Shown here one piece after another: positions 9,321 to 35,939 of a DNA stretch of 37,836 nucleotides (position 1 is the stretch's first letter; each line of letters begins with the position of its first letter). The position numbers were made by a program, and so were the translations under genes. The DNA lies in the IMG/VR virus record IMGVR_UViG_3300030523_000001; one strand, given 5' to 3'. The notes under the pieces are model-generated. The model was not told the origin of the DNA. It searched no databases and saw only the letters and a list, made by a program, of their open reading frames with translations. The DNA is from a virus.

Positions 9321-9803
9321 ATGGTAGATAGGTACCCGACGTCACCGCTGGTCGCCACCGACCTAACCGACCTAACCGACCTACGCGCCGCCGAGCGCGT
9401 CATCGCGGAGCGCGTCGCCGCCGTGAGCGCGATGCGGTCGGCCGCAATTGGACACATGGACCGCATGCGATTGACTATGAGAGACACGGCGAGTGCAGCC
9501 GATGCCGAGATCGCCGAGGCGCTGCGCGAGTTGTGGGCGCTTGCCAACCGGATCAGGACGCCGGAGCCCGGCGACGTCGTTGTGTGGGCGGATGTGGAGG
9601 ATGTCGTGCTCGCGGCCGTCTGCACGCTAGGCTCATTTAGGCAAGTACTCGCGCCTGTTATTGAGCAGATGGCGGCCACGGTGCAGGTGATGGGACCGCT
9701 GTTGCAACTGACTCAGGACGAAGTGGACGCGCGCGCGTCCCTGGTCATCGCCAAACGTACGACCGCGCTGGCCGAGGATGCGGCCCGTTATCCAATTCAG
9801 TAG
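9321..9803 (+). CDS. Hypothetical helical protein (160 aa), paralog of 13560-13985
   Basis: C-terminal ..LQLTQDEVDARASLVIAKR.. aligns with ..LQVTHEEVEGRAEILVEER.. in the other small gene. A 9-nt tandem repeat (ACCTAACCG x2 plus a partial copy) at 9361-9387 encodes TDLTDLTDL. Confidence 0.55.
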   Translation: MVDRYPTSPLVATDLTDLTDLRAAERVIAERVAAVSAMRSAAIGHMDRMRLTMRDTASAADAEIAEALRELWALANRIRTPEPGDVVVWADVEDVVLAAVCTLGSFRQVLAPVIEQMAATVQVMGPLLQLTQDEVDARASLVIAKRTTALAEDAARYPIQ

Positions 9804-9872: not shown

Positions 9873-12800
9873 ATGAGTGAGAACGAAAACGTCGGCATCG
9901 AACTGGGCGTGGACGCCGACGCCGCGCTCAGCACGTTGCAGGAGTTGACAGCGGCGGCGCTTACGGCAGACGATGCCATCCAGCAACTCAAGCAACATCA
10001 GGTTGAATTAGCGAACGCCATCCCCGGTAATCCCCAATCGTCGTCCTACACTGAGGTGGCGACGCGCTTCCAACAGATGGACCCGTCGCTCATCCGCGAC
10101 ACATATCCTGAGATCGCCCAGACACAAAATGCCCTCAATGCGCGGCGTACCGAGGTCCGGGCGCAGGCCATGGATTTCGTCGGGGCCAATCCCCAGGTCG
10201 CCGCGCAACCGCTCCCCGACACGCTGGCCCAGTTTCAGCAGGCCATGGTTCAGCGGGAGCAGCAGCAACAGGCCCAGCGCGAACGACAGGCCCAGCAGCA
10301 AGCGGCGGGCTTCATCCCCCCCGCGCGCTATGGCTACGAGGCAGCGCCCGTCCTTGCGCCACCAGTCGCGACGGCGGGAGCGGCGCCGCAAGGATTGCCC
10401 ACGGGTGGGTCCTCCGTCTCACCGACGAATGCGCCGCTGTCCCTGCCAACGCCCACGGGCGTCCCGGCGAACGCCCCTCTCGCCACGACGGGTGACGACC
10501 GCCTGGCGCAGGCGCTGTCCGCCCAGACGCCCACCCCGACACCGCTGACAAGTACGGCAACCGGCGTGCGAGACAACGACGCGCCCATGGGCGATGTTTT
10601 GCCCGTAGAGTCGGGTCGGTCCAACCCGACGCCGACATCCGTGGGCGTCCAGCCCGTCGCCCCTCTTGCCACCACAGGCGATGAGCGCCTGGCACAGGTG
10701 CTGACCGCCCAAAACCCGCCCGCCACGACGGCGACGACTGGCGCGGCCACAGGAGCCACGACTGACGCCGCGTCGGCAGCCACGGGGCCATTGCCTGGGA
10801 CCTTTGATGAATTGGCGGCGGCGGCACGCACGGCCGACACCCAACTCCAGGGACTCAAGCAACACCTGCTCGATGCGTTCAACGCCATCCCGCGCGGGTC
10901 ACAACCGGAGGCCGCGTCCTATGGCGAGGCGGTGGGGCGACTGCGGCAGATGGACCCGTCCCTCGTCCAGGAATTGCACCCCGACATCGCCCGGACACAG
11001 GCGGCCATCACGGGCCGTCAGTCCGCTATCGTCGGACAGGTGAGCCACTTCGCCGCTGACAACCCCGAGGCCGCCGCTGAACCCCTGCCCGCGCAACAGG
11101 ACATGCTCACGCGCTGGCAAGACCTGCTGCGGCAGCACAACGCGCAGCAGCAGGCCGCGACGGGGCCAGGACAGGGCGGGGACGACGCCTTGCCCAATGC
11201 GGGCGGCGCCACGTACTATCGGCAGAGCGCGCGCTCTGGCCCTTTCGTGCCCCCCGGCATGGAGCGCCTGGCCCGTTATGGCTACGACGCGACCCAGCAG
11301 ATGGACGCCCACGATGCACGCCAACGGTCGGGCCTGCCCGGACTCAACGGCGGCGGCAACAGCGGTAACGGCGGCAGCAACGGCAACGACACAACACAGC
11401 AGGACAGGACGGCCACCGTCCTGAGCGACCACATTGTGCAGGCGTTCAGTCGGAGCGCGGGTGGTCTTGTCGCGGGCGGCATCAGCGGCGCGGCGAACGC
11501 GGCTGGCATGGGCGCGACGGGCGACGTGCTGGCGGGGTTAGTACGCCCGCTGATGGGGATGATCGGTGAGGCGGCCCCACTCGCCCTGGGGGCCATCGGC
11601 GCTATCGGCGGTGTGGCGGGCGTCGGCCTGGGCGTCAACGCGTTGCAATCGCAATACGCGGGCGAGCAGCAGACACTCGCGGGCAGCGTCGGGACGACCA
11701 CGGGCGCCACGCCCTCATCCGAGTTGGACATCGCCCGACAAGCGGGCTGGCCGTTGATGTACCATGAGGCGCAATCCGTCGCCGCGGCCCAACAATTAGG
11801 CGATGTCGGGGTCCAGTCCGGCCAATTGGGCGGCGCCCTCACGGCGAGCATGGACCTCGCCCGTGTGGGTGGGATCGGCCTCGACCAGACGACCTCTCTC
11901 ACGAGCTCGCTCATGCAGGGCGGCATGTCCGCCAATCAGGTCGGTGATACCTACGCGCAGATGGACCAGGCAGCCCGCGAATCGGGCGTCAGCTTGGGGC
12001 GTTTGGTGGACGGCATCAAGGCGCTGAACCAGGCGGCGGGCGTCGGCCAGATCAGCGTCAATGGGATGGCGGCGGCGCAGGCGCTCTCCGACCAAACGGG
12101 GACGAAAATCAACATCGCGCAGGCGATGGCGGGCACCATCGGCTCGACGGGCACGAACGCGCTTGCACAGGGTTACATGTTGGGCCTTGATCCGGCGCAA
12201 TTCGACGCCGCCCAGCGCGACCCGGCGAAGTTGTGGGACGCCTACGCCAACACGGCGCGGCGCTACGACGTCGGATCGGGCGGGTCGCGTATCGCCCAGC
12301 AGGCGCTCTCCGAGGCAGGTTTCGACTTCTCGGGCATGAAGGGCAATCAAGCCGACACCTTCATCCAGAAACTGGTGGCGGAAGGCCCGAACGCGGCGCA
12401 AAAATATGAGGCCAGCCTTCAGAAGAAGGAGGCCGCCCCCGGAGCGCCCGGCCCGCACACGTTCGCGGAGTTGACCAAGGCCAGCGTGACCGTCGCCCGT
12501 AACATCACCAGCGCGTCCGATCAGTTCAAGATAGGGGTCGAGCAGGCGGCAGCGGGTTTTGTCACCTCGCTGTCCGGTGTGGATGGCCGTGGGACGGGTA
12601 TAGCCCACACCGTCGCCCATGCGCGCGCGGCGCATCGTGTCAACGCGGATGGCACCATCTCCGATTCAACGGGTATGCCTATCGTCAATATCCCACCGAG
12701 CCTCCAGACGGTGCAGGATCGCTTGAGGGGCAATGCAACGCGCTTTGGCAACGATGGCACGACCTACGCCTCTGATGGCACGCCGTTGGCTGGCACAGGT

Positions 12801-13529
12801 GGTGTGGGCACGCACCCCGGCCTAACAGGCAATCCCTACGGCACGGGTCTACACTATGCCGAGCAGCAGGGCATGTCTATAAAGAACATCGCGGGGTTCG
12901 CGCAAGCCGCGAGCCCTGAAGTGGTCCAGGCACTCGATGCGGCGTCGAAACGAACAGGAGTCCCCATTCAAGTACTCCTTGCCCAGGGCGCCCAGGAAAC
13001 GTCCAACTTCGATAAAAACGCGATCAGCAATGACGGCGGGTACGGTTTAGCGCAGATGACCGATCCCCACGTCGCGCAGCAATACCTGTCACAGGCAGCC
13101 CACGAGCTACACAAGCCCATCAACAGCGACTGGCATCAGATGGCCTTCAACCCCGCCATATCGGCGCAGGCGATGGCCGATTACGACAAGGCCAACTTCC
13201 TCTCCAAGCAAGGCGGGGGGCAATGGGATAAAGCGCTGGCGATGTACAACGGTGGCCCGAATGGATGGAACGTCACTGGTCATCCTGGTCAGGGGCGCGA
13301 CTACGGAACGGGCATCGCACAGCGTGCCGAGGAGGTGCAGCATCGCCTTGCCATCACGGTGACGACGCAGGATCAGAGCGGGCGACACACCGGACGGACA
13401 CACGTTACCCATAGTATCGACACGTCCAAGAAGCACGTCGGCGCGCAATCGTATGGTCCCGACCAGAGGCCGCCGTCGCCCGGACTGCCGAACCTGCCAG
13501 GCCATATCGGCGGCCCCATCCGACGTTAG
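9873..13529 (+). CDS. Large (1218 aa) tape-measure-like protein with C-terminal lytic transglycosylase (SLT/GH23) domain; VirB1-type wall hydrolase
   Basis: SLT motifs ..LLAQGAQETSNFDKNAISNDGGYGLAQM.. (catalytic Glu codon 12996-12998) and ..AMYNGGPNGW.. . Gly/Ala-rich hydrophobic stretch ..GGLVAGGISGAANAAGMGATGDVLAGL..GAIGAIGGVAGVGLG.. . A duplicated N-terminal unit of about 140 aa and P/T-rich linkers. Confidence 0.8.
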   Translation: MSENENVGIELGVDADAALSTLQELTAAALTADDAIQQLKQHQVELANAIPGNPQSSSYTEVATRFQQMDPSLIRDTYPEIAQTQNALNARRTEVRAQAMDFVGANPQVAAQPLPDTLAQFQQAMVQREQQQQAQRERQAQQQAAGFIPPARYGYEAAPVLAPPVATAGAAPQGLPTGGSSVSPTNAPLSLPTPTGVPANAPLATTGDDRLAQALSAQTPTPTPLTSTATGVRDNDAPMGDVLPVESGRSNPTPTSVGVQPVAPLATTGDERLAQVLTAQNPPATTATTGAATGATTDAASAATGPLPGTFDELAAAARTADTQLQGLKQHLLDAFNAIPRGSQPEAASYGEAVGRLRQMDPSLVQELHPDIARTQAAITGRQSAIVGQVSHFAADNPEAAAEPLPAQQDMLTRWQDLLRQHNAQQQAATGPGQGGDDALPNAGGATYYRQSARSGPFVPPGMERLARYGYDATQQMDAHDARQRSGLPGLNGGGNSGNGGSNGNDTTQQDRTATVLSDHIVQAFSRSAGGLVAGGISGAANAAGMGATGDVLAGLVRPLMGMIGEAAPLALGAIGAIGGVAGVGLGVNALQSQYAGEQQTLAGSVGTTTGATPSSELDIARQAGWPLMYHEAQSVAAAQQLGDVGVQSGQLGGALTASMDLARVGGIGLDQTTSLTSSLMQGGMSANQVGDTYAQMDQAARESGVSLGRLVDGIKALNQAAGVGQISVNGMAAAQALSDQTGTKINIAQAMAGTIGSTGTNALAQGYMLGLDPAQFDAAQRDPAKLWDAYANTARRYDVGSGGSRIAQQALSEAGFDFSGMKGNQADTFIQKLVAEGPNAAQKYEASLQKKEAAPGAPGPHTFAELTKASVTVARNITSASDQFKIGVEQAAAGFVTSLSGVDGRGTGIAHTVAHARAAHRVNADGTISDSTGMPIVNIPPSLQTVQDRLRGNATRFGNDGTTYASDGTPLAGTGGVGTHPGLTGNPYGTGLHYAEQQGMSIKNIAGFAQAASPEVVQALDAASKRTGVPIQVLLAQGAQETSNFDKNAISNDGGYGLAQMTDPHVAQQYLSQAAHELHKPINSDWHQMAFNPAISAQAMADYDKANFLSKQGGGQWDKALAMYNGGPNGWNVTGHPGQGRDYGTGIAQRAEEVQHRLAITVTTQDQSGRHTGRTHVTHSIDTSKKHVGAQSYGPDQRPPSPGLPNLPGHIGGPIRR

Positions 13530-13559: not shown

Positions 13560-13985
13560 ATGATGAGTGAGACTATGAACGGTGTCCCACGGGCACAGGT
13601 GGTAACAGCCGAGCGGCTGCACCTCCTCGCCGAGGCGCAGGCGCTAAAAGACCGGTTGCGTGAGTTAGAACGGGGGCATCGTGAGGTGATGGAGCCCCGT
13701 TACTACTTTTTGTGGCGGCTCTTGGGCAGCCAGCGGGAGGTCGTCGAGCGCGGGGAGGCGCCCGATTGGACGGCTATCCAGACGGGGGCCTCGGCGCTCA
13801 TTGAGTACTGCGGTATCCACTCTCAGATGGTGTGCGAACTATATAAAACGGTTGCGGCCTATATAGCTGTGGCCGAGATGGCGTTGCAGGTCACGCACGA
13901 AGAAGTAGAGGGCCGCGCCGAGATCCTCGTCGAGGAACGAGCACTGTCACCGCGCGCCGTCGCCGACGCGCCTCTGCTGCATTAA
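13560..13985 (+). CDS. Hypothetical helical protein (141 aa), paralog of 9321-9803
   Basis: Shared C-terminal motif (see 9321-9803). GAAGGAAG upstream. Confidence 0.55.
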   Translation: MMSETMNGVPRAQVVTAERLHLLAEAQALKDRLRELERGHREVMEPRYYFLWRLLGSQREVVERGEAPDWTAIQTGASALIEYCGIHSQMVCELYKTVAAYIAVAEMALQVTHEEVEGRAEILVEERALSPRAVADAPLLH

Positions 13986-14001: not shown

Positions 14002-16143
14002 ATGGGTACATGGTCGTTTTCGCCGTCCTATGATCTGACTATTTCACGCAAGAACCCCAAGGCGGGCACGCGCGGCCAGCCGGACATGCTGGCGTGGCAA
14101 CTGCGTACGCTCTCCGAGTTCCAGGGCCTGTTGGCGACCACCAACACGTCGAGCCAGGCCACCATCACCCTGCACGACCCCACGGGCGCGCTGATGGATA
14201 CCGTTGCCCCGCAGGCCATGGACGCCATAACAGTGCGCCTGCGCAATCGTCGGGGTGTGTGGGCGGGCGCGTGGGCCGGCTACGTCGATGAGTGTCACGA
14301 GATACACGACCCCGCACAGGGCCGCGTGGTGACGCTCAAGTGCAGGGGTCCGTTCAAGCGTTGGGAGGTTGGGCGTCAGAGCGCGGGCGACGTGTTGGCC
14401 CTCGCCTTTGCGGGTATGCGCAACATGGCCGGCGCGGAGGTGGTCAGGTATTCGGCGCGGGCTGTGGGCTACGATCCGGCCAACATCACGTTCGACCCGG
14501 TAGCCGACAGTGGCACTGGGCTCTATCCCTCCATCGCACAATCGACCATGACGAACCCGGATCAAGCGACGTGGAGCGCGCCCGTCCAGCAGATGCTTGC
14601 CTCCAGCGGGCTTGAGTTCTTCTTCGACGAGGACGGCTACGGCCATTACCGGCGCATGGGGTTCCTCGGCGCGTTCGACGCCCTGGGGCGACCCATCCAA
14701 AAACACGTCCCCCAAATCCCGCTGGAGGATGTGCTGCACGCCGACCTGGGCAATGGCGACACGGGCCTCGTCACGTCGGTTGAAGTTCGCTGGGGGCCGC
14801 TCCCTGTGACGGGCAAGACGGCGGCACACGCCTATGCGCCGCAGAGCATGGCTGACCAGTTAGGGTCGCGCCCACTCGTCATCCAGGCGCCGTGGATACT
14901 TGGTGGCCCAAGCGCCACCAACAATCAAGTTCCAGCCGGCGCACAATTCCTGGCTGAGACACTTTTAGACCAATACGCGAGCGGCGCCGCCACGGCCTCC
15001 GTCATCGTCATCGCTGATCCCGCGCAGTACAGGGTCGGGACGCTGGTCGATATGCCAGGTGTCCGCAAGGGGCAGGGTGTCACGCGCTACTATATTTCTT
15101 CGTGCATCTATCTTTGCCAATGGGGGGGGCAGTGGATTTGCACATTGGGATTGGTGTACGGGCGGGCGCCGGGCAACAGGTTCCCCTATGTGGACGGTAT
15201 TGCCTATCCCGTCTTAAAGGTAGACCCGACCTATGGACCGCAAAGCAACATCCCGTTCCTGGCCTTCGACCCGACGAATACCAAGAAGGTCACGACACCG
15301 CTGACGGTGCAGGCCCAACCGACTTTGGCCGTCAATCAGGCGACATCATCCTCGCTGCCCGTGGGCGCCGTCATCGAATTGCGGCAGACGGTGAGCGGCG
15401 GCGGGCAATGGGTGGGGCCGTCGCACCAGTATACGATTGTGGCCGCGCCGCAGGGGCAAGACCCCGGCGTGATCGGCTTGCAAGCGGGGGGGGGCACGGC
15501 CTACGCCACGATCATCACCCTCGGGTCGGGAGACAATGGCAGCGGGACGGGCACGGGCAATGGATCGACGGGCACAGCGACCAATCCGTTGATGCAGGGA
15601 CCGCCGACGCGGGCGCAGGGCACGGCCTCCAACGGGCAACCCGTGAGCACGTCGCTCACATTGGATAGCCCACCGAACACACTGGCGCAACGCGCATTGG
15701 CAGCGGCCTTGACCCACAACGGCGCACCGTATCAGGTTTTTCACGCGGGTCCCACGCACTACGACTGTTCTGGGCTTGTGGCGGCGGCATTTGGTGCTGT
15801 TGGCTTCCCCCTCGTCACGCCGAACAATTGGTCCAATGACGGTGAAAATGGGGACAAGGGCGTAAATGGCGGACCAGATGGGGAGTTCTACTACTTCCTG
15901 GCGCACGGCGCTGTTGAGCGTTCCAGTGTGGACGACGCGCAGCCGGGGGACCTCATATTTTGTTTCGAGGCGGGGCAATCACAACGCGGCTTCAGTCACA
16001 TCGCTTTCCTGCTTAGGCCAGGCGTCAGCTTTGGCGGCAACAGTCCCACGCTTGGCGTTGGACCTATTGCCATCGCTGGATTTCACAGCGACGCTGGCCC
16101 GCCCTTTAATCGCGCCCTAGATATGTCCCGCATCCATCTCTGA
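14002..16143 (+). CDS. 713-aa protein: N-terminal phage tail-hub-like region, Gly/Thr-rich linker, C-terminal NlpC/P60 endopeptidase
   Basis: NlpC/P60 motifs ..GAPYQVFHAGPTHYDCSGLVAAAFGAVG.. (Cys codon 15766-15768), ..QPGDLIFCF.. and ..FSHIAFLL.. (His 15997-15999). The N-terminal ..ATITLHDPTGALMDTV..ITVRL..WAGYVDE..VVTLKCRG.. is reminiscent of gpD/XkdQ-type hub proteins (weak). Confidence 0.75.
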   Translation: MGTWSFSPSYDLTISRKNPKAGTRGQPDMLAWQLRTLSEFQGLLATTNTSSQATITLHDPTGALMDTVAPQAMDAITVRLRNRRGVWAGAWAGYVDECHEIHDPAQGRVVTLKCRGPFKRWEVGRQSAGDVLALAFAGMRNMAGAEVVRYSARAVGYDPANITFDPVADSGTGLYPSIAQSTMTNPDQATWSAPVQQMLASSGLEFFFDEDGYGHYRRMGFLGAFDALGRPIQKHVPQIPLEDVLHADLGNGDTGLVTSVEVRWGPLPVTGKTAAHAYAPQSMADQLGSRPLVIQAPWILGGPSATNNQVPAGAQFLAETLLDQYASGAATASVIVIADPAQYRVGTLVDMPGVRKGQGVTRYYISSCIYLCQWGGQWICTLGLVYGRAPGNRFPYVDGIAYPVLKVDPTYGPQSNIPFLAFDPTNTKKVTTPLTVQAQPTLAVNQATSSSLPVGAVIELRQTVSGGGQWVGPSHQYTIVAAPQGQDPGVIGLQAGGGTAYATIITLGSGDNGSGTGTGNGSTGTATNPLMQGPPTRAQGTASNGQPVSTSLTLDSPPNTLAQRALAAALTHNGAPYQVFHAGPTHYDCSGLVAAAFGAVGFPLVTPNNWSNDGENGDKGVNGGPDGEFYYFLAHGAVERSSVDDAQPGDLIFCFEAGQSQRGFSHIAFLLRPGVSFGGNSPTLGVGPIAIAGFHSDAGPPFNRALDMSRIHL

Positions 16144-16268: not shown

Positions 16269-17201
16269 ATGCGAGACATCGACCGCCTTATCGACGCGGC
16301 CCGTCAGCAACGCTGGGGCGTCGAGCGGCGCAAATCGGGCCACTTCATGCTCACGCCGCCATCGCGAGGGTCCCCGCTCATTGTAGTCGCCGGTACGCCG
16401 AGCGACCACCGCGCCTACGCCAAAATTCGCGCACAACTCAAACGCGCCGGTCTCGTGTTGCCGGACGATCATACACCAAAGGAAACCTCAGCCATGCCAC
16501 GCCGACAAACCACACCCACGAAAACCAGCCGCAGTCAACGGGCGAGTGCTGCGAGCGCCAAGGCAGCCGTGACCCGCGTTCCGCGAACCAACGTGGTCGA
16601 CGCGTTGCCCACACCCCTCTCACGCGCGGATGAAGCGCGATTCGCAGCCGAGCAACGCGCCCTTGCCAAGGGCGACACGCTCCAGGCCGAGACCAAGCTG
16701 GATCGTGACCTGGCGCACCTGGCCGACCCAAACGCGGGCCGGCGCACGGTCACATCTAGGCAGAGAAGGGCGCCGCAGGAACAGGCGCTTGTCTACCGCG
16801 GCAGTCGCACACGCGGTGCCTTGGTCTTGGTCGCGCAAGAGATCGAGATCCTCGTGCCGGACGAGGACAACGACGCCAGGGTCGCCGAGATGCAGGCCGT
16901 CATCCCCGGCATGGACGAAGATAGCCAGCGCGCGGCGTGGGCCGCCGCTGCCGCCCTCCGCAATCGTGAGCCGGAGCCCTACGTGCCGCTCGCGGAGCGG
17001 TTGATCCTCAGTGGCATCCACTACCACTTCTCGCTCGGAAAGTCCACACTTGTCCACGAGGACGATGTGGACTACGTGCTCGCCTATCCCGCCTACCGCA
17101 TCGAGCGCGTTGGCGACATCAACGATAAAGAGGACGCGCTGCCGCCCGCGATTGTTCGTCGGAACACAGCGGCCGCGACGACCCAGCGGCAGAGGGCATA
17201 G
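16269..17201 (+). CDS. Hypothetical protein (310 aa) with HicA/YcfA-like N-terminal module and basic middle region
   Basis: ..RQQRWGVERRKSGHFMLTPPSRGSPLIVVAGTPSDHRAYAKIRAQLKRAGL.. resembles the HicA fold pattern (tentative). GGGGAG upstream of the ATG. Confidence 0.5.
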   Translation: MRDIDRLIDAARQQRWGVERRKSGHFMLTPPSRGSPLIVVAGTPSDHRAYAKIRAQLKRAGLVLPDDHTPKETSAMPRRQTTPTKTSRSQRASAASAKAAVTRVPRTNVVDALPTPLSRADEARFAAEQRALAKGDTLQAETKLDRDLAHLADPNAGRRTVTSRQRRAPQEQALVYRGSRTRGALVLVAQEIEILVPDEDNDARVAEMQAVIPGMDEDSQRAAWAAAAALRNREPEPYVPLAERLILSGIHYHFSLGKSTLVHEDDVDYVLAYPAYRIERVGDINDKEDALPPAIVRRNTAAATTQRQRA

Positions 17202-17203
17202 CC

Positions 17204-17458
17204 ATGGCAAAAAAGACACGGACGCCTACAGTCGATAGCGAGGGGGCCGGGGCGCGCTTGGCGGCGACGAAGGCGAAAGCGGCCCTGACGCCGCGTGACC
17301 TAGCCCTGCTGCACTGGCCGTCCATTCCACCACGGCCTTATGCGCCAACGACAGTGGTGCTCGATGAGAGCACCCAACGGGGCCGGGAGACACGAGGCCC
17401 GGACGGTACGGCCAGATGGTCGCCGAATGGTCCCGGCCCCGACGCCTACGGAGAGTGA
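17204..17458 (+). CDS. Hypothetical protein (84 aa)
   Basis: Tightly packed in the plus-strand operon, starting 3 nt after the previous stop. Confidence 0.45.
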   Translation: MAKKTRTPTVDSEGAGARLAATKAKAALTPRDLALLHWPSIPPRPYAPTTVVLDESTQRGRETRGPDGTARWSPNGPGPDAYGE

Positions 17459-17461
17459 TAT

Positions 17462-17728
17462 ATGAGCACGACAGATACCGCACAGCAGACGCCCCGCGAG
17501 ATCCTCGCCCACGCGCGGGAACGGAATGCACAACTGCAGGCCAAGGGCTTGGCGGCACAGCGCATCGGCCGGGGCCTCGTGGCCGTTGAGCGCGACGATG
17601 TACGGGCCACTTCGCATGACACCGCCTTGGCCCTCGTACGCTGCCAGGACCTGGTGGCGGATATGATGGCGTTGTCAACCGAGGTCGTCGAGGCGTGTGA
17701 GGGTGCCCTAGTGGCGTCCCACGAATAG
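17462..17728 (+). CDS. Hypothetical protein (88 aa)
   Basis: GGAGAG upstream. Tightly packed. Confidence 0.45.
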   Translation: MSTTDTAQQTPREILAHARERNAQLQAKGLAAQRIGRGLVAVERDDVRATSHDTALALVRCQDLVADMMALSTEVVEACEGALVASHE

Positions 17729-17736
17729 GAGGAACC

Positions 17737-18237
17737 ATGCCCCGCGTCTGTACCATCTGCACGCGTCCAGAGCGCGAGGCCATTGACCGGGCGCTGGTGG
17801 GTGGGACAGCGTGCCGAGAAGTTGCCGCGTTATACCGCGTTTCACCGGATGCGGTGGAGCGCCATAAAGGGGCGCACCTACCCCAAATGCTCACTGAAAC
17901 GCGGCAGGCGCGTGAGGAGGCGCACGCGCTCGATGTTGTGAAGCAGTTGCGCGTCATCAATGGCGTGAGCTTGCAGATCCTGAACGAGGCGCGACAGGGC
18001 AAGGACCCGCAGACCGCACTCAAGGCCGTGGATCGCATCCACCGGCAAATCGAACTGCAAGCCAAACTCCTGGGTCAACTCGATGACCGGCCGCAGATCA
18101 ATCTGCTGATGGCCCCCGAGTGGGTTCTGGTGCGGTCCGCGCTGCTCATGGCCCTTGCGTCCCATCCCGAGGCGCGGCTAGCCGTGACGACTGCGCTGAT
18201 GGCCGTAGAAGCGCCCTCCGCGTTAGGGGCCGCGTGA
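17737..18237 (+). CDS. Terminase small-subunit-like HTH protein (166 aa)
   Basis: AGGAGG upstream. MPRVCTICTRPEREAIDRALVGGTACREVAALYRVSPDAVERHKGAHLP is the Zn-knuckle plus HTH opening typical of many phage TerS proteins. It sits directly upstream of TerL with a 1-nt overlap. Confidence 0.5.
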   Translation: MPRVCTICTRPEREAIDRALVGGTACREVAALYRVSPDAVERHKGAHLPQMLTETRQAREEAHALDVVKQLRVINGVSLQILNEARQGKDPQTALKAVDRIHRQIELQAKLLGQLDDRPQINLLMAPEWVLVRSALLMALASHPEARLAVTTALMAVEAPSALGAA

Positions 18238-18995
18238 TGATCGTGTCGCCCATTGCCTCCGACCTGGCCCGTGCGCTGGACCCGGTGCTGCTCGCCGAGC
18301 AGGTGGGTATCGTACCCGATCCGTGGCAAGCTAATGTGCTGCGCTCGACGGCGAGCCGGCTGCTGCTCAACTGTAGCCGCCAATCGGGGAAGTCGACCAT
18401 TACCAGTATCCTGGCGTTGCACACGGCGCTCTACACGTCCGGTAGCCTCGTGCTGCTACTCTCGCCGTCGCTGCGACAGAGCGGCGAGCTCTTCAAGAAA
18501 GCGCTCGGTGTATACAAGGACCTCGGGCGACCCGTGGCGCCCGAGAGCGAAACGGCGCTCACGCTGACCCTCGATAACGGTAGCCGCATCGTGAGCCTAC
18601 CCGGCTCGAAGGACGGCAACATTCGCGGGTACAGCGGCGTCAACCTTCTTGTCATCGACGAGGCGGCCTGGGTCGCGGAGAGTCTGTACATGAGCGTCCG
18701 GCCCATGCTGGCGGTCAGCGGGGGGCGGATGCTGGCCCTGTCCACTCCCCACGGGACGCGCGGGTGGTTTTACGAAGCGTGGCGTGGCGTGGAGCCATGG
18801 GAGCGGTACGAGGTGCCGGCGACACTCTGCCCCCGCATCTCGCCGGCGTTCCTGGCCGAAGAGAAGCGCAGCATGGGCGACTGGTGGTTTCAGCAAGAAT
18901 ACGGCTGCACATTCAGTGAAGCCGAGACACAAGCGTTCCGCCGCGAGGACGTCGAGCGCGCCTTTAGGGAGGATCTTGAGGAATGGGATTTATAA
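18237..18995 (+). CDS. Terminase large subunit, ATPase domain only (252 aa)
   Basis: ..PDPWQANVLRS..LLLNCSRQSGKSTI.. (Walker A), ..LLVIDEAAW.. (Walker B), ..LSTPHGTRGWFYEAW.. . Ends where the nuclease domain normally begins. Confidence 0.7.
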   Translation: MIVSPIASDLARALDPVLLAEQVGIVPDPWQANVLRSTASRLLLNCSRQSGKSTITSILALHTALYTSGSLVLLLSPSLRQSGELFKKALGVYKDLGRPVAPESETALTLTLDNGSRIVSLPGSKDGNIRGYSGVNLLVIDEAAWVAESLYMSVRPMLAVSGGRMLALSTPHGTRGWFYEAWRGVEPWERYEVPATLCPRISPAFLAEEKRSMGDWWFQQEYGCTFSEAETQAFRREDVERAFREDLEEWDL

Positions 18996-19759
18996 CCATT
19001 GGGGTCGATATTGGCCAGAAGCGAGACCCCACGGCCATCGCCGTGGCCGAAACGGTGTGGCAGGCGACCCCGAACGGCCGTGGCGTGGAAGAGCGCTACA
19101 CCATCCGCCGCACCGAACGCCTGCCGCTGGGCACGGCGTACCCCGTCGTTGCCGAGCGCATCGCCGGTGTCGTCACGAATCTCCATAAACGAGCGGAGCC
19201 CCCAGGGGGGCCACAGATGGAATACGACCCGGTGAGTGGCGTCTACCAGACGGCGACGGTTGCGCCGCCAGAGATCGTCCTCTATGTAGACGCGACGGGC
19301 GTGGGCCAGCCGGTGGTCGACCTGCTCGCGCGCGCGGGTGTCCAGCCTATTGCCGTCTACTTCACGCACGGCGATAGGCGCACCGTGCGCGAGGATGGCA
19401 GCGTCGCGCTCGGTAAAGGGTGGCTCGTGTCCCGCCTTCAATCCCTCTTACAGACCGACCGGCTGCTGTTGCCCAAGACGGGCGAGGCGGCCGCCCTGAC
19501 GGAGGAATTGCTGAACTACGAGATTAAGGTCTCGGAGGATGCCAATGAGCAGTACGGCGCGTTCCGCGTCGGGACCCACGACGACCTCGTGACTGCGATT
19601 GGCCTGGCCACACAAGGAGCCCCCGAGATTGAGACCACGGAGATTGTCTACCTGGAGGACATCGTAGGTGACTACCGCATCCATATCGGAGGCGGTGAGT
19701 CGTACCAAAACCCACACCAGCAGGCGCTATCGGAATGGCGCCGCTACTTCGGTCGTTGA
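18983..19759 (+). CDS. Terminase large subunit, RNase-H-like nuclease domain as a separate ORF (258 aa)
   Basis: MGFITIGVDIGQKRDPTAIAV.., ..LYVDATGVGQPVVDLL.. and ..GTHDDLVTAIGLA.. are the three acidic motifs of terminase nucleases. Overlaps the ATPase ORF by 13 nt in the -1 frame. Confidence 0.65.
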   Translation: MGFITIGVDIGQKRDPTAIAVAETVWQATPNGRGVEERYTIRRTERLPLGTAYPVVAERIAGVVTNLHKRAEPPGGPQMEYDPVSGVYQTATVAPPEIVLYVDATGVGQPVVDLLARAGVQPIAVYFTHGDRRTVREDGSVALGKGWLVSRLQSLLQTDRLLLPKTGEAAALTEELLNYEIKVSEDANEQYGAFRVGTHDDLVTAIGLATQGAPEIETTEIVYLEDIVGDYRIHIGGGESYQNPHQQALSEWRRYFGR

Positions 19760-19792: not shown

Positions 19793-20299
19793 ATGACCAC
19801 AACCAATCGACCCACGCCAGCAACGGCGAGCACGCTACACTCCATGCTCGACGCCCTGCTGTCCCCCCCGCCCGCTGCCGCGCCCGAGCCGCCGACGGCG
19901 CACCCCAGCACGACGACGCTGGTGGAAGACTTGAGCGCCATTGTGCGACGTAGCCAGGCACGGCCACAGCCGCCGCGCACGGCTCCCGGCGCCGCCTCGG
20001 CGGCCACGCTGACCGAGACGACGCATAATCGCGCCAACGACACGAACCAGGACGGGACGCTCGTCCACAACGTGTCGTTGTGTGAGGGCTTAAACGTGCC
20101 ACTGCAAGCGTACCGCTGGGAGCCCCTGCCCACCTCTGATGATCCGTGGGGGTTGCGCGAGCGTATGGACGTGCTGGAGACCGCGATTGCCGCGCGCACC
20201 ACGCCGACGCGCCCCGTACCGGCCACCCCCGCCATGTCGTCGCTCACCGAGGCGCGACTGACGAAAGCCCATCAACGGCTCAACGAGATACTGGGCTAA
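19793..20299 (+). CDS. Hypothetical Pro/Thr/Ala-rich protein (about 168 aa; GTG alternative at 19760)
   Basis: ORF following the terminase. AGAGGA upstream of ATG 19793. Low complexity in the N-terminal half. Confidence 0.4.
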   Translation: MTTTNRPTPATASTLHSMLDALLSPPPAAAPEPPTAHPSTTTLVEDLSAIVRRSQARPQPPRTAPGAASAATLTETTHNRANDTNQDGTLVHNVSLCEGLNVPLQAYRWEPLPTSDDPWGLRERMDVLETAIAARTTPTRPVPATPAMSSLTEARLTKAHQRLNEILG

Positions 20300-20321
20300 T
20301 CAGCCAAGAGAGGTAGACATA

Positions 20322-20906
20322 ATGAATCTCAACTCACCGCAGGCCATGGAGGCGGCCGCCTTCCAACAACTGCAAAACACGTTAATTAACCAGGGCCGCG
20401 ATTCCCAGTTATCCCTCCAACACAAGGCGACGTGGGAGCGGGAGCACCGCATGGTCTGGACGGAAGCGCCCCTCGCCGTGAGAACGGCCATCAGGGCGCG
20501 TCAGGACGCGATCCAGCGCGAACAGCAGCGTCTCGAAGAGATGGCGAAGGCGCGCTATAACGCCGGCCTGGAAGCCCTCAAGCGGCGCTACCGTGAGCGG
20601 CGCGACATCACGGGCGTCGAGTACGACGCGGGCCAGCGCGAACTACATAACGAGTGGCAAGCACGCCGGGTCGACCTGGCGCGGCGTTACGTCCACACGT
20701 TCGCCGACGCGCGGCTGAAAGAGATTCAGGAGCAAGCCCATACCGTGTCCACAGCGGCGCGGGACGCGAAATGGGAGCGCGAGGGCGCGGCCCTCATCGA
20801 GAGCTACGCCATGCCCGAGCCGCCGGCGTGGGCTACTGAGCCCGAACAGGCAGAGGCGGTCGAGAAGACGACCGGGCGACGCCGGCCAGCGACAGCCGCG
20901 CGCTAA
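20322..20906 (+). CDS. Hypothetical coiled-coil protein (194 aa)
   Basis: AGAGAGG upstream. Charged heptad-like sequence (..QREQQRLEEMAKARYNAGLEALKRRYRERR..). Confidence 0.5.
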   Translation: MNLNSPQAMEAAAFQQLQNTLINQGRDSQLSLQHKATWEREHRMVWTEAPLAVRTAIRARQDAIQREQQRLEEMAKARYNAGLEALKRRYRERRDITGVEYDAGQRELHNEWQARRVDLARRYVHTFADARLKEIQEQAHTVSTAARDAKWEREGAALIESYAMPEPPAWATEPEQAEAVEKTTGRRRPATAAR

Positions 20907-20966
20907 AGCATGGGGCGTATGACGCGCCCGGTGACATGACATGACCGAAAGGTGAGGGTGGGGCCG

Positions 20967-21734
20967 ATGCCCGAGGGGCGAGTTATCGCAGTGGATAGTG
21001 ACAGCGGCGGGGGGCTGATACGGCCCCTGCGCCGGCAGCCGGATACGCGCTTTACAGGCGCGGGGGTGGTTCAAGACGGCTCTCCGCCTGTGCAGGTGGG
21101 CGATTGGGTATCGTTTATGTTGGCGGACAGCACGCCGGGCCAGGCGCGCCTGGCCGTTGAGGTGCGTCATGCGCCCCCACCCGCGCACGAGGCGGCCATG
21201 CAGGACCCCGCGTGGAGCGGGTCCTGGGCCAACATTGAGCGCGACCACGAGGAGTACCGGCAGGCAGTCGAACGCCGGTACAAGCGCGGCGAGGTGACGA
21301 TTTATCAGCGGGCGGGTCTCCTCGCGGACGCGGAGTACGCGCGGGCAACGCATCTCGTGCGCATTGTACGCATGAGGGCCGACGGCCACAATGGGGCGCT
21401 GGAACAGGGCACGATTTGGAGCGTGAAGCCGCGCGGCTTTGCGTTTGTCTGCACGGCCACGGGCGAGCATCTCTTCATGCACGCCTCCCATGTAGTCGGC
21501 GTCCCCTTTAGCGAGCTGCGTCCCGGCGACACCGTGACCTATCGGCGCACCCGCGACCCACGCGGCAAAGGGTTCATCGCCACGCGGGTCGAGCGCATTA
21601 AGCGCGCGCCCGTCACCGCCACGACGGCACACGTCCCCGCGCCCGAGGAGCCCACGCCGGGACGGTGGCGGGTCCCCGCGGGGTGGCCGGCCGATGACGA
21701 GGACGCCGAGGATGATTGGGGTGCGGCGTCGTAA
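20967..21734 (+). CDS. Protein with two cold-shock/S1-like OB domains (about 255 aa)
   Basis: ..GRVIAVDSDSGGGLIRP..VQVGDWVSF.. and ..GTIWSVKPRGFAFVCTATGEHLFMHASHVVGVPFSELRPGDTVTYR..GKGFIATRV.. follow the CSD pattern (G-x-V-x-W, GFGFI-like, F-x-H, GD-x-V-x-F). Confidence 0.55.
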   Translation: MPEGRVIAVDSDSGGGLIRPLRRQPDTRFTGAGVVQDGSPPVQVGDWVSFMLADSTPGQARLAVEVRHAPPPAHEAAMQDPAWSGSWANIERDHEEYRQAVERRYKRGEVTIYQRAGLLADAEYARATHLVRIVRMRADGHNGALEQGTIWSVKPRGFAFVCTATGEHLFMHASHVVGVPFSELRPGDTVTYRRTRDPRGKGFIATRVERIKRAPVTATTAHVPAPEEPTPGRWRVPAGWPADDEDAEDDWGAAS

Positions 21735-23898: not shown

Positions 23899-25773
23899 GT
23901 GTATGCGGTACTGAGGGTTGCGAAGCTCAAGACAATGGGTGAGATCGGCGCGTTAGGGAAGCATAACGAACGGACACGCGACACGCCGAACGCCGACGGG
24001 GAGCGCCTGCAAGAGAACGTCCGCCTGGCGGGAACGGGCGACTGGTGCGCCGACGCGCAATGCCGTCTTGACGATGCGCCGACGATACGCGCCAATGCCG
24101 TCCTCGCCATGGAACACGTCATGACCGCCAGCCGTGAGTTCTACCAAGCGGGCGACGTCGGCGAACAGGCCGCACGCCTGTCCGAGTGGACCGAGCGAAG
24201 CATGGCCTGGCTCCGCGAGACCTACGGCGACAAGAACGTGGTCGCCGCGGTGCTACACCGCGACGAAATCACGCCGCATATCCAGGCCCTCGTCGTTCCA
24301 ATTGACGAACGCGGCCGCCTCAACGCCCACGCCTACACGGATGGACGTGCGATGCTGGCGCGGATGCAAGACAGCTATGCTGCGGCCGTGCGCGAGATGG
24401 GCCTGGAGCGGGGCGTGCGGGGCAGTGTGGCCGAACACCAGACGGTCAAAGAGTTCTACGCCAAGATCGAGGAACCGACGCCAGCGCCCGAACTCGTCAA
24501 GGAGCGCCTTGAGGTAGACCGTCCGGGCCGTATCGTCGCTAACCCTGAGCGGTACGCAAGCGAGCAACAGGAGAAGATTGCCGAGCGCCTGGCCCCGGTC
24601 GTGGACGCCGCGCTCACGAAGGCGACGCACTACGAAGCGCAGGCCGCGAAGGCCGAGGCCAACATCGTCGTCTTGCAGCAGCAGGTCCGCGAGATCGCGC
24701 GCGAGCGGGACACGCTGAGAGAGGACTACAAGGTGCTGGCGGCGCAGGTCCGTGCCATCGACCTCCCGACCGTGATCGAGCGGTTAGGCGGTCAGGTGGA
24801 CCGCTACAACGCGCACAAGTACCACCTCGATGGTGAGCACATCAGCATCAACGGCGAGCGGTTCTATAACCACGACCAGCAAAAGGGCGGCGGGGGGGCT
24901 ATCGACCTGGTGATGCACGCGGCCAGCTACGACTACCGCGAGGCCGTCGCCTATCTCAGGGACACGCACGGCGCGGACGCGGCCATAAGCGCCGCGACGT
25001 GGCATGGCGCACGTCACGCGCAGGACGAGGCCCGTACGATCGTGGAGCACGCCGAGCGCCCGACCTTCCGCGCGCCGACGCCGGATGAGGCGCGTTGGGC
25101 ACAGGTGAGAAACTACCTCGTTGCAGAGCGCCAGCTACCGGCGTCGTTGGTCGACGACCTGCACGCGCGGGGGGCGGTCTACGCCGACAGCCGGAGTAAC
25201 GCTGTCTTTCTGCGCACGAATGAGGACGGCCAGGCCGTGGGTGCGTCGCTACGGGGGACGGCGCCGGGTTCGGAGTTCAAGGGGCTCGCCACCGGCACGC
25301 GCCGCGACGAGGGGCACTTCTCGTTCACCGTCGGCAAGGCCGAGATGCACGCCGCGCCCCAGGTCTACATCACCGAATCGCCCATCGACGCGCTGAGCCG
25401 CGCCGCGCTCTTGCTGGCGGCGGGCGATCGCCACGAGATGACGTTCGCCTCGACCGATGGACACGGAGAGTTGCCACGGCGGCAGATCGACGAGGGGCTC
25501 GCCCGGCATGCGTTGGTCCATTGCTCATTCGACAACGACGCCGGCGGGGCCACGCTGTGGAAACGGGTCCAGGAGGCGTACCCACGCGCCGAGGCCATCG
25601 TGCGGGATCGCCCGCCGACGGGCTGCAAGGATTGGAACGACGCCCAGCGCCAGCCCGCGCAGCGCCAAGAGCGCCAGGGAGAGCCGAGCCACCAGCGCGC
25701 GCACACGCCGAGCCATGGGCAGGGCGTGGGGCGGCACACCGGCCGGGACGAGCACGACGACCGGCGCCTCTAG
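23899..25773 (+). CDS. mob: MobV-family (Mob_Pre) relaxase fused to a DUF3991-like/Toprim primase-type C-terminal domain (624 aa, GTG start)
   Basis: N-terminus MYAVLRVAKLKTMGEIGALGKHNERT.. and ..VLHRDEITPHIQALVVPID.. (HxDE..PH.H) are MobV signatures, as is ..GLERGVRGSVAEHQTVKEFY.. . C-terminal motifs are ..GGGGAIDLVMH.., ..YITESPIDALS.. (Toprim Glu) and ..SFDNDAGG.. (DxD). Confidence 0.8.
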   Translation: MYAVLRVAKLKTMGEIGALGKHNERTRDTPNADGERLQENVRLAGTGDWCADAQCRLDDAPTIRANAVLAMEHVMTASREFYQAGDVGEQAARLSEWTERSMAWLRETYGDKNVVAAVLHRDEITPHIQALVVPIDERGRLNAHAYTDGRAMLARMQDSYAAAVREMGLERGVRGSVAEHQTVKEFYAKIEEPTPAPELVKERLEVDRPGRIVANPERYASEQQEKIAERLAPVVDAALTKATHYEAQAAKAEANIVVLQQQVREIARERDTLREDYKVLAAQVRAIDLPTVIERLGGQVDRYNAHKYHLDGEHISINGERFYNHDQQKGGGGAIDLVMHAASYDYREAVAYLRDTHGADAAISAATWHGARHAQDEARTIVEHAERPTFRAPTPDEARWAQVRNYLVAERQLPASLVDDLHARGAVYADSRSNAVFLRTNEDGQAVGASLRGTAPGSEFKGLATGTRRDEGHFSFTVGKAEMHAAPQVYITESPIDALSRAALLLAAGDRHEMTFASTDGHGELPRRQIDEGLARHALVHCSFDNDAGGATLWKRVQEAYPRAEAIVRDRPPTGCKDWNDAQRQPAQRQERQGEPSHQRAHTPSHGQGVGRHTGRDEHDDRRL

Positions 25774-35618: not shown

Positions 35619-35939
35619 ATGAAACGGCAAATTATCCATATCGAATATTTGCCTGATGCGAACGCCCACGCGACCCAGTCACCACTCAAGCAGAAGGAGC
35701 GGCGACGGTTGGCGGTGGCAATGGCAGGGCGACATCCAGACTGGCCGCACGAGAAGATTGGCCGCTTGGTGGGGTTGAGCCGAGAAGCCGTTGACAAGAT
35801 CATGCAAGCCGAAGAGATCATAGCGCAAATAAACCCGAATGGTAATATTACCATCCCCGATACGACAGCCCGCGCCATGACCGAAGCGCTCCCCGCCACG
35901 TACACACCGCGGGCCGAAGCGGCAACCGCGGGCAATTAA
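35619..35939 (+). CDS. Small HTH protein (106 aa)
   Basis: ..RRRLAVAMAGRHPDWPHEKIGRLVGLSREAVDKIM.. . The start abuts the last repeat of the mini-array. Confidence 0.45.
   Translation: MKRQIIHIEYLPDANAHATQSPLKQKERRRLAVAMAGRHPDWPHEKIGRLVGLSREAVDKIMQAEEIIAQINPNGNITIPDTTARAMTEALPATYTPRAEAATAGN

Follow-up and report, generated by a model that had tools for sequence, protein, structure and literature searches.

The window analysed here is the whole of the IMG/VR virus record IMGVR_UViG_3300030523_000001, a stretch of 37,836 nt, and represents a predicted conjugative plasmid from a rock-dwelling (Antarctic endolith) microbial community. Its end-to-start junction is crossed, with a 22-nt overlap, by two independent contigs (JGI samples 3300031452 and 3300050280). 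The 22-nt terminal repeat is this overlap and the unique length is 37,814 bp, so that the 37.8-kb circle claimed by the first-pass annotation was confirmed. At 17737-19759 the plasmid carries a module of three translationally coupled open reading frames (ORFs) encoding a small Zn/helix-turn-helix (HTH) protein and, as two separate chains, the ATPase and the nuclease of a phage large terminase (TerL) (Table 1); the coordinates and junctions first assigned to the three ORFs were correct. The start of the ATPase gene overlaps the TGA stop codon of the small gene. The ATPase and nuclease genes overlap by 13 nt, the second being in the -1 frame, and AGGGAGGA sits 10 nt upstream of the nuclease ATG at 18983. 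A canonical slippery heptamer is absent from the 13-nt overlap.

Profile searches of both halves against Pfam, PHROGs, and solved structures bore out the initial identification as a TerL ATPase and an RNase H-like nuclease. The ATPase chain matched Pfam Terminase_6N at 3.5e-8 (above the curated cutoff) and phrog_7579, a 239-position large-terminase profile, at 5e-61, and its family profile matched the ATPase domain of P74-26 TerL (4zni, 1.4e-21) and T4 gp17 (1e-14). The nuclease chain matched Pfam Terminase_6C at 1.9e-4 (just under the curated cutoff) and phrog_27743 at 2e-19, and its family profile matched the nuclease domains of P74-26/G20c TerL (5tge, 5m1f, and 5m1q) at ~1e-18. The Walker A (RQSGKS) and Walker B (DEA) motifs are invariant in the ATPase alignment (A1), and the acidic residues D103 and D200/D201 are invariant in the nuclease alignment (A2), with D9 kept where the region is present. 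The Walker motifs and the nuclease acidic residues are invariant across both split and fused homologs, and P74-26/G20c TerL has the same Walker A/B motifs and acidic triad. The plasmid ATPase chain shares 51% identity with the N-terminal half of TerL from Thermus phage Riverbug and Meiothermus phage MMP17, and a homologous small gene is located directly upstream of TerL in both phages. However, TerL of Riverbug and MMP7/MMP17 is one polypeptide of 415-417 amino acids (aa), whereas the plasmid has two ORFs, and the split point is exactly the interdomain linker of the fused phage enzymes. Portal, protease, capsid, and full tail genes follow TerL in these phages, while no portal or capsid gene follows the plasmid module. 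As judged from these comparisons, the two ORFs together supply the domains of TerL on two chains rather than on one polypeptide.

A possible indel at 18983-18995 had been raised with the first-pass annotation as a cause of the split. The identical split protein pair is called in one JGI and two ENA assemblies, and the agreement of three independent assemblies means that the split is not a sequencing error. A frameshift is also ruled out by the clade-wide split with variable gene order described below, by the start codon and Shine-Dalgarno sequence of the nuclease gene, and by the lack of a slippery heptamer. All three module genes are under purifying selection, as the ratios of nonsynonymous to synonymous substitution rates (dN/dS) against close relatives are 0.10-0.19 (ATPase), 0.11-0.27 (nuclease), and 0.20-0.49 (small gene). 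At the protein level, close relatives are 77-89% identical in the ATPase, up to 95% in the nuclease, and 42-61% in the small protein.

The small protein is a putative small terminase subunit (TerS). It has no match in Pfam, PHROGs, or NCBIfam. Residues C5, C8, H43, and H47 (CCHH) are invariant in an alignment of 73 sequences (A5), which indicates a Zn-stabilised HTH. In the AlphaFold2 model, with a mean predicted local distance difference test (pLDDT) score of 79, the HTH is accompanied by a long helical hairpin (50 residues) and two C-terminal helices. A Foldseek search with the model gave no solved TerS; the best PDB match had an E value of 1, and only local matches to LuxR-type HTH domains were obtained (probability 0.7-0.8). 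In Riverbug and MMP17, the product of the ORF that directly precedes TerL shares 37-38% identity with the plasmid protein. Thus, of the earlier description as a TerS-like HTH gene coupled upstream, the coupling, the HTH, and the phage synteny stand, while a match to a solved TerS fold was not obtained; position, HTH, synteny, and the predicted architecture point to a TerS. The faster divergence of the small protein fits a DNA-specificity subunit that may be exchanged or quickly evolving.

A homolog search returned more than 7,500 ATPase homologs, and the best 120 (70-100% identity) were all 217-273 aa long. When one genome per species was scanned, 80 loci were obtained, with identities of 53-73%. 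The bacteria among them span more than 10 phyla, including Armatimonadota, Chloroflexota, Acidobacteriota, Gemmatimonadota, Actinomycetota, Planctomycetota, Bacillota, Pseudomonadota, and Patescibacteria; the module was also found in archaeal bins (Methanomicrobia, Methanospirillum, and Halobacteriota), with binning errors possible for single metagenome-assembled genomes. Of the 80 loci, 75 have an ATPase-only ORF (~235-296 codons). Nuclease homologs were recovered at 69 loci, each time as a separate ORF (69/69), and the small gene adjoins the ATPase gene in 59 of the 80. The order of the genes varies among small subunit/ATPase/nuclease, an arrangement with an extra gene between ATPase and nuclease, and one with the nuclease upstream of the other two. 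Since order and spacing are variable, ATPase and nuclease are truly separate genes. The fused enzyme is a feature of sister lineages; five Planctomycetota loci have it, beside an HK97-type portal and capsid. The survey of homologs for the same split, which the first-pass annotation had suggested, therefore found it clade-wide, and comparison of the loci marks the split as the ancestral state of a very large clade. The pairs are annotated by PHROGs and NCBI as 'terminase family protein' followed by 'hypothetical protein', and the pieces sit unrecognised in databases; phrase searches of the literature ('split terminase' and similar) gave no account of a two-gene large terminase.

Some loci show further variation. 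Two or three nuclease-chain paralogs, in tandem or nearby, are present in L027, L033, L036, L099, and the Salinibacter plasmid pSR31 (L003, 5178-5780, 5798-6436, and 8620-9240); one of the pSR31 paralogs matched phrog_27743 at 1.5e-44 and another matched phrog_13702, annotated 'terminase large subunit'. The modules in the Methanomicrobia, Methanospirillum, Methanocrinis, and Halobacteriota bins (L047, L050, L051, L055, L058, L060, and L090) are 55-59% identical, which reflects either unusually high cross-domain conservation or mis-binning, and two of these loci have the order nuclease, small subunit, ATPase.

The three-gene module is the only feature common to the window and 160 distant loci. 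In IMG/VR contigs of true phages, it is followed by an SPP1-like portal, a scaffold, and a capsid-sized gene. Among the genome loci with enough flanking sequence, 42 of 48 have no portal or capsid gene, as tested by profiles built from the portal, capsid, scaffold, and protease genes of relatives and by a Pfam search of 94 ORFs (300-640 aa) in their neighbourhood. The Pfam families seen most often in these ORFs are serine recombinases, DUF3631, methylases, transposases, and flanking housekeeping genes. The islands have a layout of integrase, PrimPol/D5_N primase-helicase, sometimes Mom, the module, and cargo (a conflict-system glycosyltransferase, GT4-conflict, and an AAA ATPase). In particular, island L181 (the same as L014) is delimited by chromosomal genes at ~12.8 kb and has no room for capsid genes, with only an Ala-rich coiled-coil protein after the module. 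By its gene content, this capsid-less layout is a satellite architecture. The ATPase gene is also present on small non-mobilisable plasmids of Salinibacter ruber (11-32 kb), Streptomyces virginiae (16 kb), and Rhodococcus (16 kb), all capsid-less; the upstream small gene and a following nuclease-type ORF were seen in the Salinibacter and Streptomyces plasmids. In an approximate neighbour-joining tree of the ATPase, the window group is nested in a large island clade, and the phages with SPP1-like portals form its sister clade.

Proteins of 424-428 aa after the module in some islands were considered as portals and rejected: the one in L014/L181 is the Ala-rich coiled coil, and the one in L106 is unrelated and without a family match. 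Long coiled-coil, tape-measure-like proteins are often encoded downstream of the module in capsid-less plasmids and islands, including pSR11 (L004, 7132-9018), pSR31 (L003, 7206-8597), and L181 (11717-13003). They match phrog_167, phrog_1538, or phrog_30292 or are Ala-rich proteins of 428 aa, and the similarity may be of low complexity only. A Mom-family protein (Pfam Mom, 2.4e-49), related to the DNA-modification enzyme of phage Mu, is encoded directly upstream of the module in about 10 capsid-less islands (L017, L023, L027, L030, L032, L033, and L036 among them).

Tail-tip genes are located upstream of the module. The first-pass annotation had recognised no virion structural genes besides the terminase. 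This holds for capsid, portal, tube, and sheath genes, while two tail proteins, the tape-measure-like protein and the hub, were missed, so the element does contain some virion genes. The 713-aa protein is established as a phage baseplate hub by its predicted fold and its position after the tape-measure-like gene. Specifically, an AlphaFold2 model from a 37-sequence alignment (mean pLDDT 68) was compared with the PDB and BFVD by Foldseek, and the hub fold was matched with a probability of 1.00 over ~400 residues and E values of 8e-17 to 1e-9 against many solved hubs. The PDB matches include the diffocin hub (8v3w_H, 8e-17), the 43-kDa tail protein of Shewanella MuSo2 (4e-14), and Mu gp44 (3e-12), followed by T4 gp27, VgrG, pyocin and contractile-injection-system hubs, and siphophage tail-associated lysins; those in BFVD include SPO1 Gp12.1 (6.5e-19), 'late control GPD', and XkdQ. 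The protein thus resembles known hubs (Mu gp44, P2 gpD, T4 gp27, XkdQ, diffocin, and SPO1 Gp12.1) in fold and in the preceding tape-measure-like gene, and its C-terminal lytic domain is like that of tail-associated lysins. At the sequence level, tblastn of the hub N-terminus against phage genomes gave only two marginal SPO1-like matches. The dN/dS ratio of the hub gene is 0.09-0.27.

The hub is 85% identical to that in a tail/baseplate cluster of L177, a contig of 85 kb; contigs with this hub (L177, Ga0500067_000066) measure 85-116 kb. The genes of L177 run in the order of a 498-aa gene (cut), genes of 182, 166, and 62 aa, an 886-aa SLT protein, a 141-aa protein, the hub, genes of 148 and 157 aa, a 394-aa protein with a weak Baseplate_J match, and genes of 597 and 321 aa, a layout that reads as a contractile-tail module. 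A search with the Baseplate_J-like protein of L177 found nothing. Whereas baseplate genes follow the hub homolog in L177, no wedge, spike, fibre, tube, or sheath gene follows the hub in the window. The SLT protein and the 713-aa NlpC/P60 protein were also considered as hydrolases of a type IV secretion system (T4SS); for the 713-aa protein, this was ruled out by the hub fold and the synteny with L177. Among the hub homologs P0261, P0278, and P0279, the C-terminal lytic domain is swapped (NlpC/P60, Amidase_5, Peptidase_M23, or Glyco_hydro_19) and the hub part is kept. The host phylum is hinted at by one distant hub homolog, found in a Chloroflexi bin.

The tape-measure-like protein is 48% identical to the 886-aa SLT protein of L177. 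It contains an internal N-terminal duplication of ~300 aa, with residues 1-113 and 310-420 both aligning to the same N-terminus of the L177 protein; the duplication would lengthen the tail if the protein truly acts as a ruler. Its gene has a dN/dS ratio of 0.19-0.36. Neither this protein nor the hub has a recognisable membrane anchor or signal peptide. The 141-aa protein is kept at the same position in L099/L182 (84% identity), L093, and L183-L187, with dN/dS of 0.19-0.24. Homologs of the 160-aa protein occupy the same position in L096/L180 (69% identity), L183, L186, and L187, and a 165-aa gene is found there in L178; from its position, the protein is possibly a tail-assembly chaperone.

Searches with Pfam, PHROGs, and NCBIfam revealed no portal, capsid, protease, scaffold, tube, or sheath gene in the window, and the profiles of the relatives' portal, capsid, scaffold, and protease genes found nothing at E<=1 in its six-frame translation. 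The family libraries and these profiles agree with the first-pass annotation that the circle has no portal, capsid, protease, tube, or sheath gene. In particular, no match to the portal or capsid profiles was obtained in any of the six frames at 16269-17728 and 19793-21734, where such a search had been recommended. As far as its genes can be identified, the window does not encode the full capsid, portal, and tail set of a phage-plasmid. Scans for tRNA, Rfam families, and repeats near the module revealed nothing marking a pac, cos, or att site.

Table 1 Features of the plasmid, with the terminase module first.
Feature	Position (strand)	Length (aa)	Basis and remarks
Putative small terminase subunit	17737..18237 (+)	166	AGGAGG Shine-Dalgarno upstream
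Large terminase ATPase chain	18234..18995 (+)	252, counted from ATG 18237	GTG 18234 or ATG 18237 start, TAA 18995 stop
Large terminase RNase H-like nuclease chain	18983..19759 (+)	258	Own ATG 18983 and own Shine-Dalgarno
160-aa protein	9321..9803 (+)	160	Directly before tape-measure-like gene; no family match
Tape-measure-like protein	9873..13529 (+)	1218	Long, helical, Gly/Ala-rich; C-terminal SLT lytic transglycosylase (Pfam SLT 3e-7, residues 1022-1130)
141-aa protein	13560..13985 (+)	141	Between tape-measure-like gene and hub; slot of XkdP/gpX in other tail clusters
Baseplate hub / tail-associated lysin	14002..16143 (+)	713	N-terminal ~400 aa predicted hub fold (gp27/Mu gp44/P2 gpD/XkdQ-like); C-terminal NlpC/P60 peptidase (Pfam NLPC_P60 6e-5)
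310-aa protein	16269..17201 (+)	310	HicA-like N-terminus (PADLOC 1.5e-9, phrog_2089 6e-12, residues 2-74); kept in cassette relatives
Two small ORFs	17204..17728 (+)	84, 88	Just upstream of small-subunit gene; kept among close relatives only
Three genes 3' of module	19793..21734 (+)	168, 194, 255	P/T-rich; coiled-coil; cold-shock-domain (Pfam CSD 6e-8)
Probable replication protein (HTH and primase-polymerase-like core)	5112..7010 (+)	632	Weak NCBIfam PrimPol 6e-4 and motifs read in translation
MobV-type relaxase fused to DUF3991 and Toprim primase domain	23899..25773 (+)		Pfam Mob_Pre 1e-34, DUF3991 2e-15, Toprim_2 2.5e-8
Type IV coupling protein	25884-27974 (-)		Pfam T4SS-DNA_transf 9e-44, TraG-D_C 3e-20
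Polytopic VirB6-like membrane protein	28689-29930 (-)	413	~8 hydrophobic segments
VirB4-like ATPase	30088-32601 (-)		NCBIfam TraC 5e-19, CD1110-family VirB4 1e-16, both far below curated cutoffs
Free-standing HNH_3 and HTH_17 endonuclease, homing-endonuclease type	35936..36838 (-)	300	Pfam HNH_3 8e-13, HTH_17 4e-6; PHROG HNH families; PADLOC homing endonuclease

The tail-tip and terminase genes belong to a cassette of ~12 kb. It begins with the 160-aa and tape-measure-like proteins, a small gene, and the hub; some further small genes lead to the small subunit and the ATPase and nuclease chains, after which come two more small genes and the coiled-coil and cold-shock-domain proteins. The P/T-rich, coiled-coil, and cold-shock-domain genes of the window, which had been described correctly from the start, are common to L093-L097, L011, L178, and L180, with dN/dS of 0.12-0.42. 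The cassette is also present on other elements of ~35-41 kb with VirB4/TraG-like genes (L096, L099/L182, and L180) and on the DnaB+Toprim replicons L178/L179, where no T4SS genes are in view, and a shorter version without tail genes is found on an integrase+DnaB+Toprim element (L011). By this comparison, it is mobile and is found on at least three backbones: that of the window, the conjugative-type backbone of L180, and the DnaB/Toprim backbone of L178 and L011. With regard to the HicA-like N-terminus of the 310-aa protein, a HicB-like antitoxin gene was noticed a few kb away in L178 (20169-20630).

Five relatives in IMG/VR (L183-L187) share the hub of the window at 73-89% identity. Their slot from the hub-proximal small genes to the cold-shock gene holds a different 127-aa protein and a single-chain TerL of 511 aa (e.g. 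L187, 12681-14989). This TerL is T4 gp17-like (3ezk, 2.7e-14) and 25-31% identical to the split ATPase. The 88-aa ORF upstream of the small-subunit gene also precedes the alternative terminase in L185 and L187, and no portal follows the single-chain TerL in L183-L187 either. The comparison identifies a non-orthologous displacement of the split TerL by a single-chain one. Such an exchange of one intact terminase for an unrelated one at the same position argues that selection acts on terminase function.

The remainder of the plasmid encodes conjugation, replication, and regulatory functions. The predicted relaxase-primase, coupling protein, and VirB4-like ATPase mark the window as a conjugative plasmid; VirB4/TraC models matched the ATPase in the range of 5e-19 to 3e-6. 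Of the complete T4SS, relaxase, and coupling protein first described, the relaxase and coupling protein are confirmed together with the VirB4-like ATPase, while completeness of the T4SS is not, and the two 'cell-wall hydrolases' are the phage tail parts. Pfam and PHROGs detected no peptidoglycan hydrolase domains on the plasmid other than those of the two tail proteins, and no integrase was found in the window by the same libraries. The protein encoded at 5112-7010 is probably Rep, and the backbone further encodes sigma-like HTH proteins. At the DNA level, the only similarity to plasmids was a single weak Salinibacter match. PDB sequence searches with the 313-, 632-, 390-, and 1218-aa proteins of the window and with two L177 genes gave nothing useful. 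The HNH endonuclease had been proposed as the partner of a cos-type terminase, and this was rejected on domain type (HNH_3+HTH_17), size, distance (16 kb), and strand (opposite). In HK97-like cos phages, the HNH protein is short and TerS-adjacent, unlike the 300-aa protein of the plasmid.

Further observations on the window and its relatives are as follows. Free-standing homing-type endonucleases with HTH_17 are scattered over the elements, such as a GIY-YIG/NUMOD3 protein between the tape measure and hub genes of L177 (5134-6330) and the HNH_3 protein of the window. The 390-aa protein at 2020-3192 contains a DxD segment resembling Toprim. Its match to phrog_6247 ('DNA topoisomerase') is at 1e-43, that to JetD (Wadjet) is weak, and it belongs to no Pfam family. 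The 169-aa protein at 7471-7980 has a J-domain-like C-terminus with an HPD motif (KHAHPDIAGGD) and is common to the cassette relatives L011, L187, and L178. A 602-aa ORF at 32636-34444 (-) overlaps the VirB4-like gene and is probably spurious; metagenome callers give several small genes there instead.

On this basis, we suggest that the window, a conjugative plasmid, also acts as a helper-dependent phage satellite, a hitcher with a complete split terminase and tail-tip genes. We put the probability of this reading at roughly one half. For an intact, selected terminase and tail-tip set on replicons with no head genes, helper-dependent packaging would be the simplest account. In this scheme, a helper tailed phage would replicate in the same cell; candidates are the SPP1-like-portal phages with the same split terminase or an L177-like contractile-tailed element. 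The small subunit of the plasmid would bind a site on the plasmid, and the ATPase and nuclease chains would assemble on it and on the helper portal, cut plasmid DNA, and drive it into procapsids of the helper. In completing the particles, the tape measure and hub of the plasmid may nucleate or modify tails on the helper tube or sheath, or may alter penetration specificity. The plasmid would thereby have two exits from the cell, conjugation and helper-dependent transduction. Contigs with close homologs cluster at 30-44 kb and related phage genomes measure 33-53 kb. Since the plasmid size is within this genome range, no capsid remodelling would be needed, and since SPP1-like-portal phages carry the same split module, compatible helpers exist. 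By gene content, the window combines an incomplete virion set with genes predicted to act on helper packaging and assembly, as satellites do, while the integrase and small size of satellites are found in the related islands and not in the window. A capsid-hijacking satellite was among three possibilities put forward by the first-pass annotation, and the new evidence favours it, with packaging into helper heads the conjectural part.

Several points weigh against this proposal. The element is known from its genes, and the case is made entirely by comparative genomics. The proposed helpers are candidates only, and none was found on the same host; for L177, a stretch of 22 kb is known, the Baseplate_J assignment comes from a weak precomputed match, and a tailocin or contractile injection system is conceivable in place of a phage. 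To our knowledge, a large terminase is very rare among known satellites, and the need of a foreign TerL to dock on the helper portal limits the helper range. The window has neither an integrase nor a recognisable helper-sensing regulator, and its 37.8 kb greatly exceed the size of classical satellites. The scans near the module revealed neither a pac nor a cos site, and the predicted small-subunit fold is unmatched by any solved TerS in Foldseek. Finally, capsid and portal detection relied on sequence profiles and one structure prediction, and ORFs of 313, 310, and 277 aa have no assignment.

Among the alternatives, an interference or defence cassette is the strongest, though improbable as the sole explanation. 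The terminase and tail-tip proteins would sabotage superinfecting phages, either by cutting or mis-packaging their concatemers or by upsetting tail assembly through the foreign tape measure and hub, and so protect host and plasmid. This role could coexist with satellite transfer, as in PICIs (phage-inducible chromosomal islands) and in PLEs (PICI-like elements). Conflict-type cargo (the GT4-conflict glycosyltransferase, AAA ATPase, and Mom) lies beside the module in related islands, and the faster divergence of the small-subunit gene (42-61% against 77-95% identity for the two chains) is expected of an arms-race specificity determinant. Satellites are known to interfere with helper packaging (PMC9618062, PMC11417361). 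However, no PADLOC model matches any module gene, which speaks against a known defence system, a catalytically intact terminase with a cognate DNA-binding subunit exceeds the needs of interference, and the same module is a genuine packaging enzyme in related phages. Anti-phage interference is plausible as a second or additional role.

It is less probable again that the genes are the relic of a former phage-plasmid, or of a prophage in a conjugative plasmid, as leftovers or transiently conserved genes. Such a decaying remnant was the third possibility of the first-pass annotation. Only a subset of virion genes is present, homing endonucleases and mosaicism speak of frequent rearrangement, and an archaeal element with only TerS and TerL was read as a likely relic (Krupovic et al., 2019; PMC6563490). 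A relic is contradicted by dN/dS well below 1 in every cassette gene across dS of about 0.2-2 with intact catalytic residues, by recurrence of the cassette on different backbones, by the large coherent clades that capsid-less islands form on the terminase tree, and by replacement of the terminase with another intact one in the same slot of five relatives.

The remaining possibility named by the first-pass annotation, recruitment of the terminase for plasmid DNA processing, found no support, and its wider form is very unlikely. In that form, the terminase and lytic tail proteins would serve conjugation or maintenance, with SLT and NlpC/P60 as T4SS hydrolases and the terminase resolving or processing multimers. 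The two lytic domains do match the pair used by Gram-positive conjugation systems (CwlT of ICEBs1 combines a muramidase with NlpC/P60), they are the only peptidoglycan hydrolases found on the plasmid, and the cassette is on at least two conjugative-type backbones. However, the module is far commoner on non-conjugative islands and small non-mobilisable plasmids, the cassette is also on DnaB/Toprim replicons with no T4SS genes in view, and neither lytic protein has the signal peptide or membrane anchor mentioned above. We know of no precedent for a terminase acting in conjugation. A conjugation role for the lytic domains, though conceivable, does not explain the distribution of the module.

Least probable of all is a self-sufficient virus or phage-plasmid with capsid, portal, and tube genes too divergent to detect: it could draw on the ORFs without assignment (3512-4453, 313 aa; 16269-17201, 310 aa; 22792-23625, 277 aa; and 19793-20906), on the hub, which was invisible to Pfam and PHROGs and surfaced only by structure prediction, and on the listing of close relatives as viral in IMG/VR, but the portal-size ORFs are accounted for (390 aa, Toprim/JetD-like; 632 aa, PrimPol-like; 413 aa, polytopic membrane protein; 602 aa, probably spurious), the relatives' profiles found nothing, the usual portal slot after the terminase holds only the 168-, 194-, and 255-aa genes, and much of the remaining coding capacity is devoted to conjugation, replication, and regulation.

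The proposed satellite plasmid can be compared with known elements. Staphylococcus aureus pathogenicity islands (SaPIs)/PICIs, PICMIs (phage-inducible chromosomal minimalist islands), and some VEIMEs (integrative mobile elements encapsidated in virions) are likewise mobile, with an incomplete virion set and packaging-specificity genes, and the related islands share their layout of integrase, primase-helicase, packaging, and cargo genes. These satellites borrow the large terminase of the helper, whereas the split-module family brings a complete terminase, and the window differs from them as a 37.8-kb conjugative plasmid without integrase that is known here from its genes. VEIMEs encode TerS homologs and 'motor-like ATPases' (PMC9618062). 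Mycobacterial EPIPs, which resemble the plasmid in their partial virion set and packaging genes, are reported to carry a tape measure and a small terminase, with no large terminase listed (PMC12822802). Capsid-forming PICIs (cf-PICIs) have their own capsids as whole head modules and steal only tails; the plasmid has the complementary set of terminase and tail-tip genes, with no capsid, portal, or tube.

Terminase genes outside viruses have a precedent in the integrated element NitKor-E1 of the thaumarchaeon Nitrosopumilus koreensis, whose adjacent TerS and TerL are its only tailed-virus genes and which was read as a probable relic (Krupovic et al., 2019; PMC6563490). The same 2019 survey stated that non-viral mobile elements had yielded no terminase complex. 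NitKor-E1 is similar in being a non-viral-looking mobile element with TerS and TerL; set against it by description only, it is a single case, while the plasmid module belongs to a large clade across many phyla, under purifying selection and with a split TerL. According to a review, terminase genes carried by a mobile element indicate that phages mobilise it (PMC11389934). In work on generalised transduction of plasmids, plasmid sizes were shown to follow capsid capacity, and packaging of plasmids was shown to be driven by terminases (Humphrey et al., 2021; PMC8494744). Transduced plasmids and phage-plasmids are likewise plasmids of roughly phage-genome size able to travel in phage heads. Phage-plasmids, however, encode whole virions, and transduced staphylococcal plasmids use phage or SaPI terminases at pseudo-pac sites, while this plasmid encodes its own terminase.

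More tentatively than for the window itself, we propose a large, ancient, and previously unrecognised class of capsid-less elements, found in bacteria and archaea as islands, small plasmids, and conjugative plasmids, whose own complete split terminase would load them into helper procapsids. The lineage of the window adds its own tape measure and hub, and would provide the first case of a conjugative plasmid doubling as a phage satellite, a mirror image of the capsid-forming PICIs. IMG/VR-type pipelines count such elements as viruses via the terminase; several close relatives are listed as viral without capsid genes, and virome statistics of soil, rock, and sediment metagenomes are affected by such calls. 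A natural and widespread two-chain TerL, with the chains sometimes encoded apart or reversed, offers a system for domain cooperation in translocation, cutting, and portal docking. If the proposal is true, the satellite concept would extend to elements that bring the whole packaging motor and not just the specificity subunit, and conjugation and phage particles, the two main transfer routes, would be joined in one replicon.

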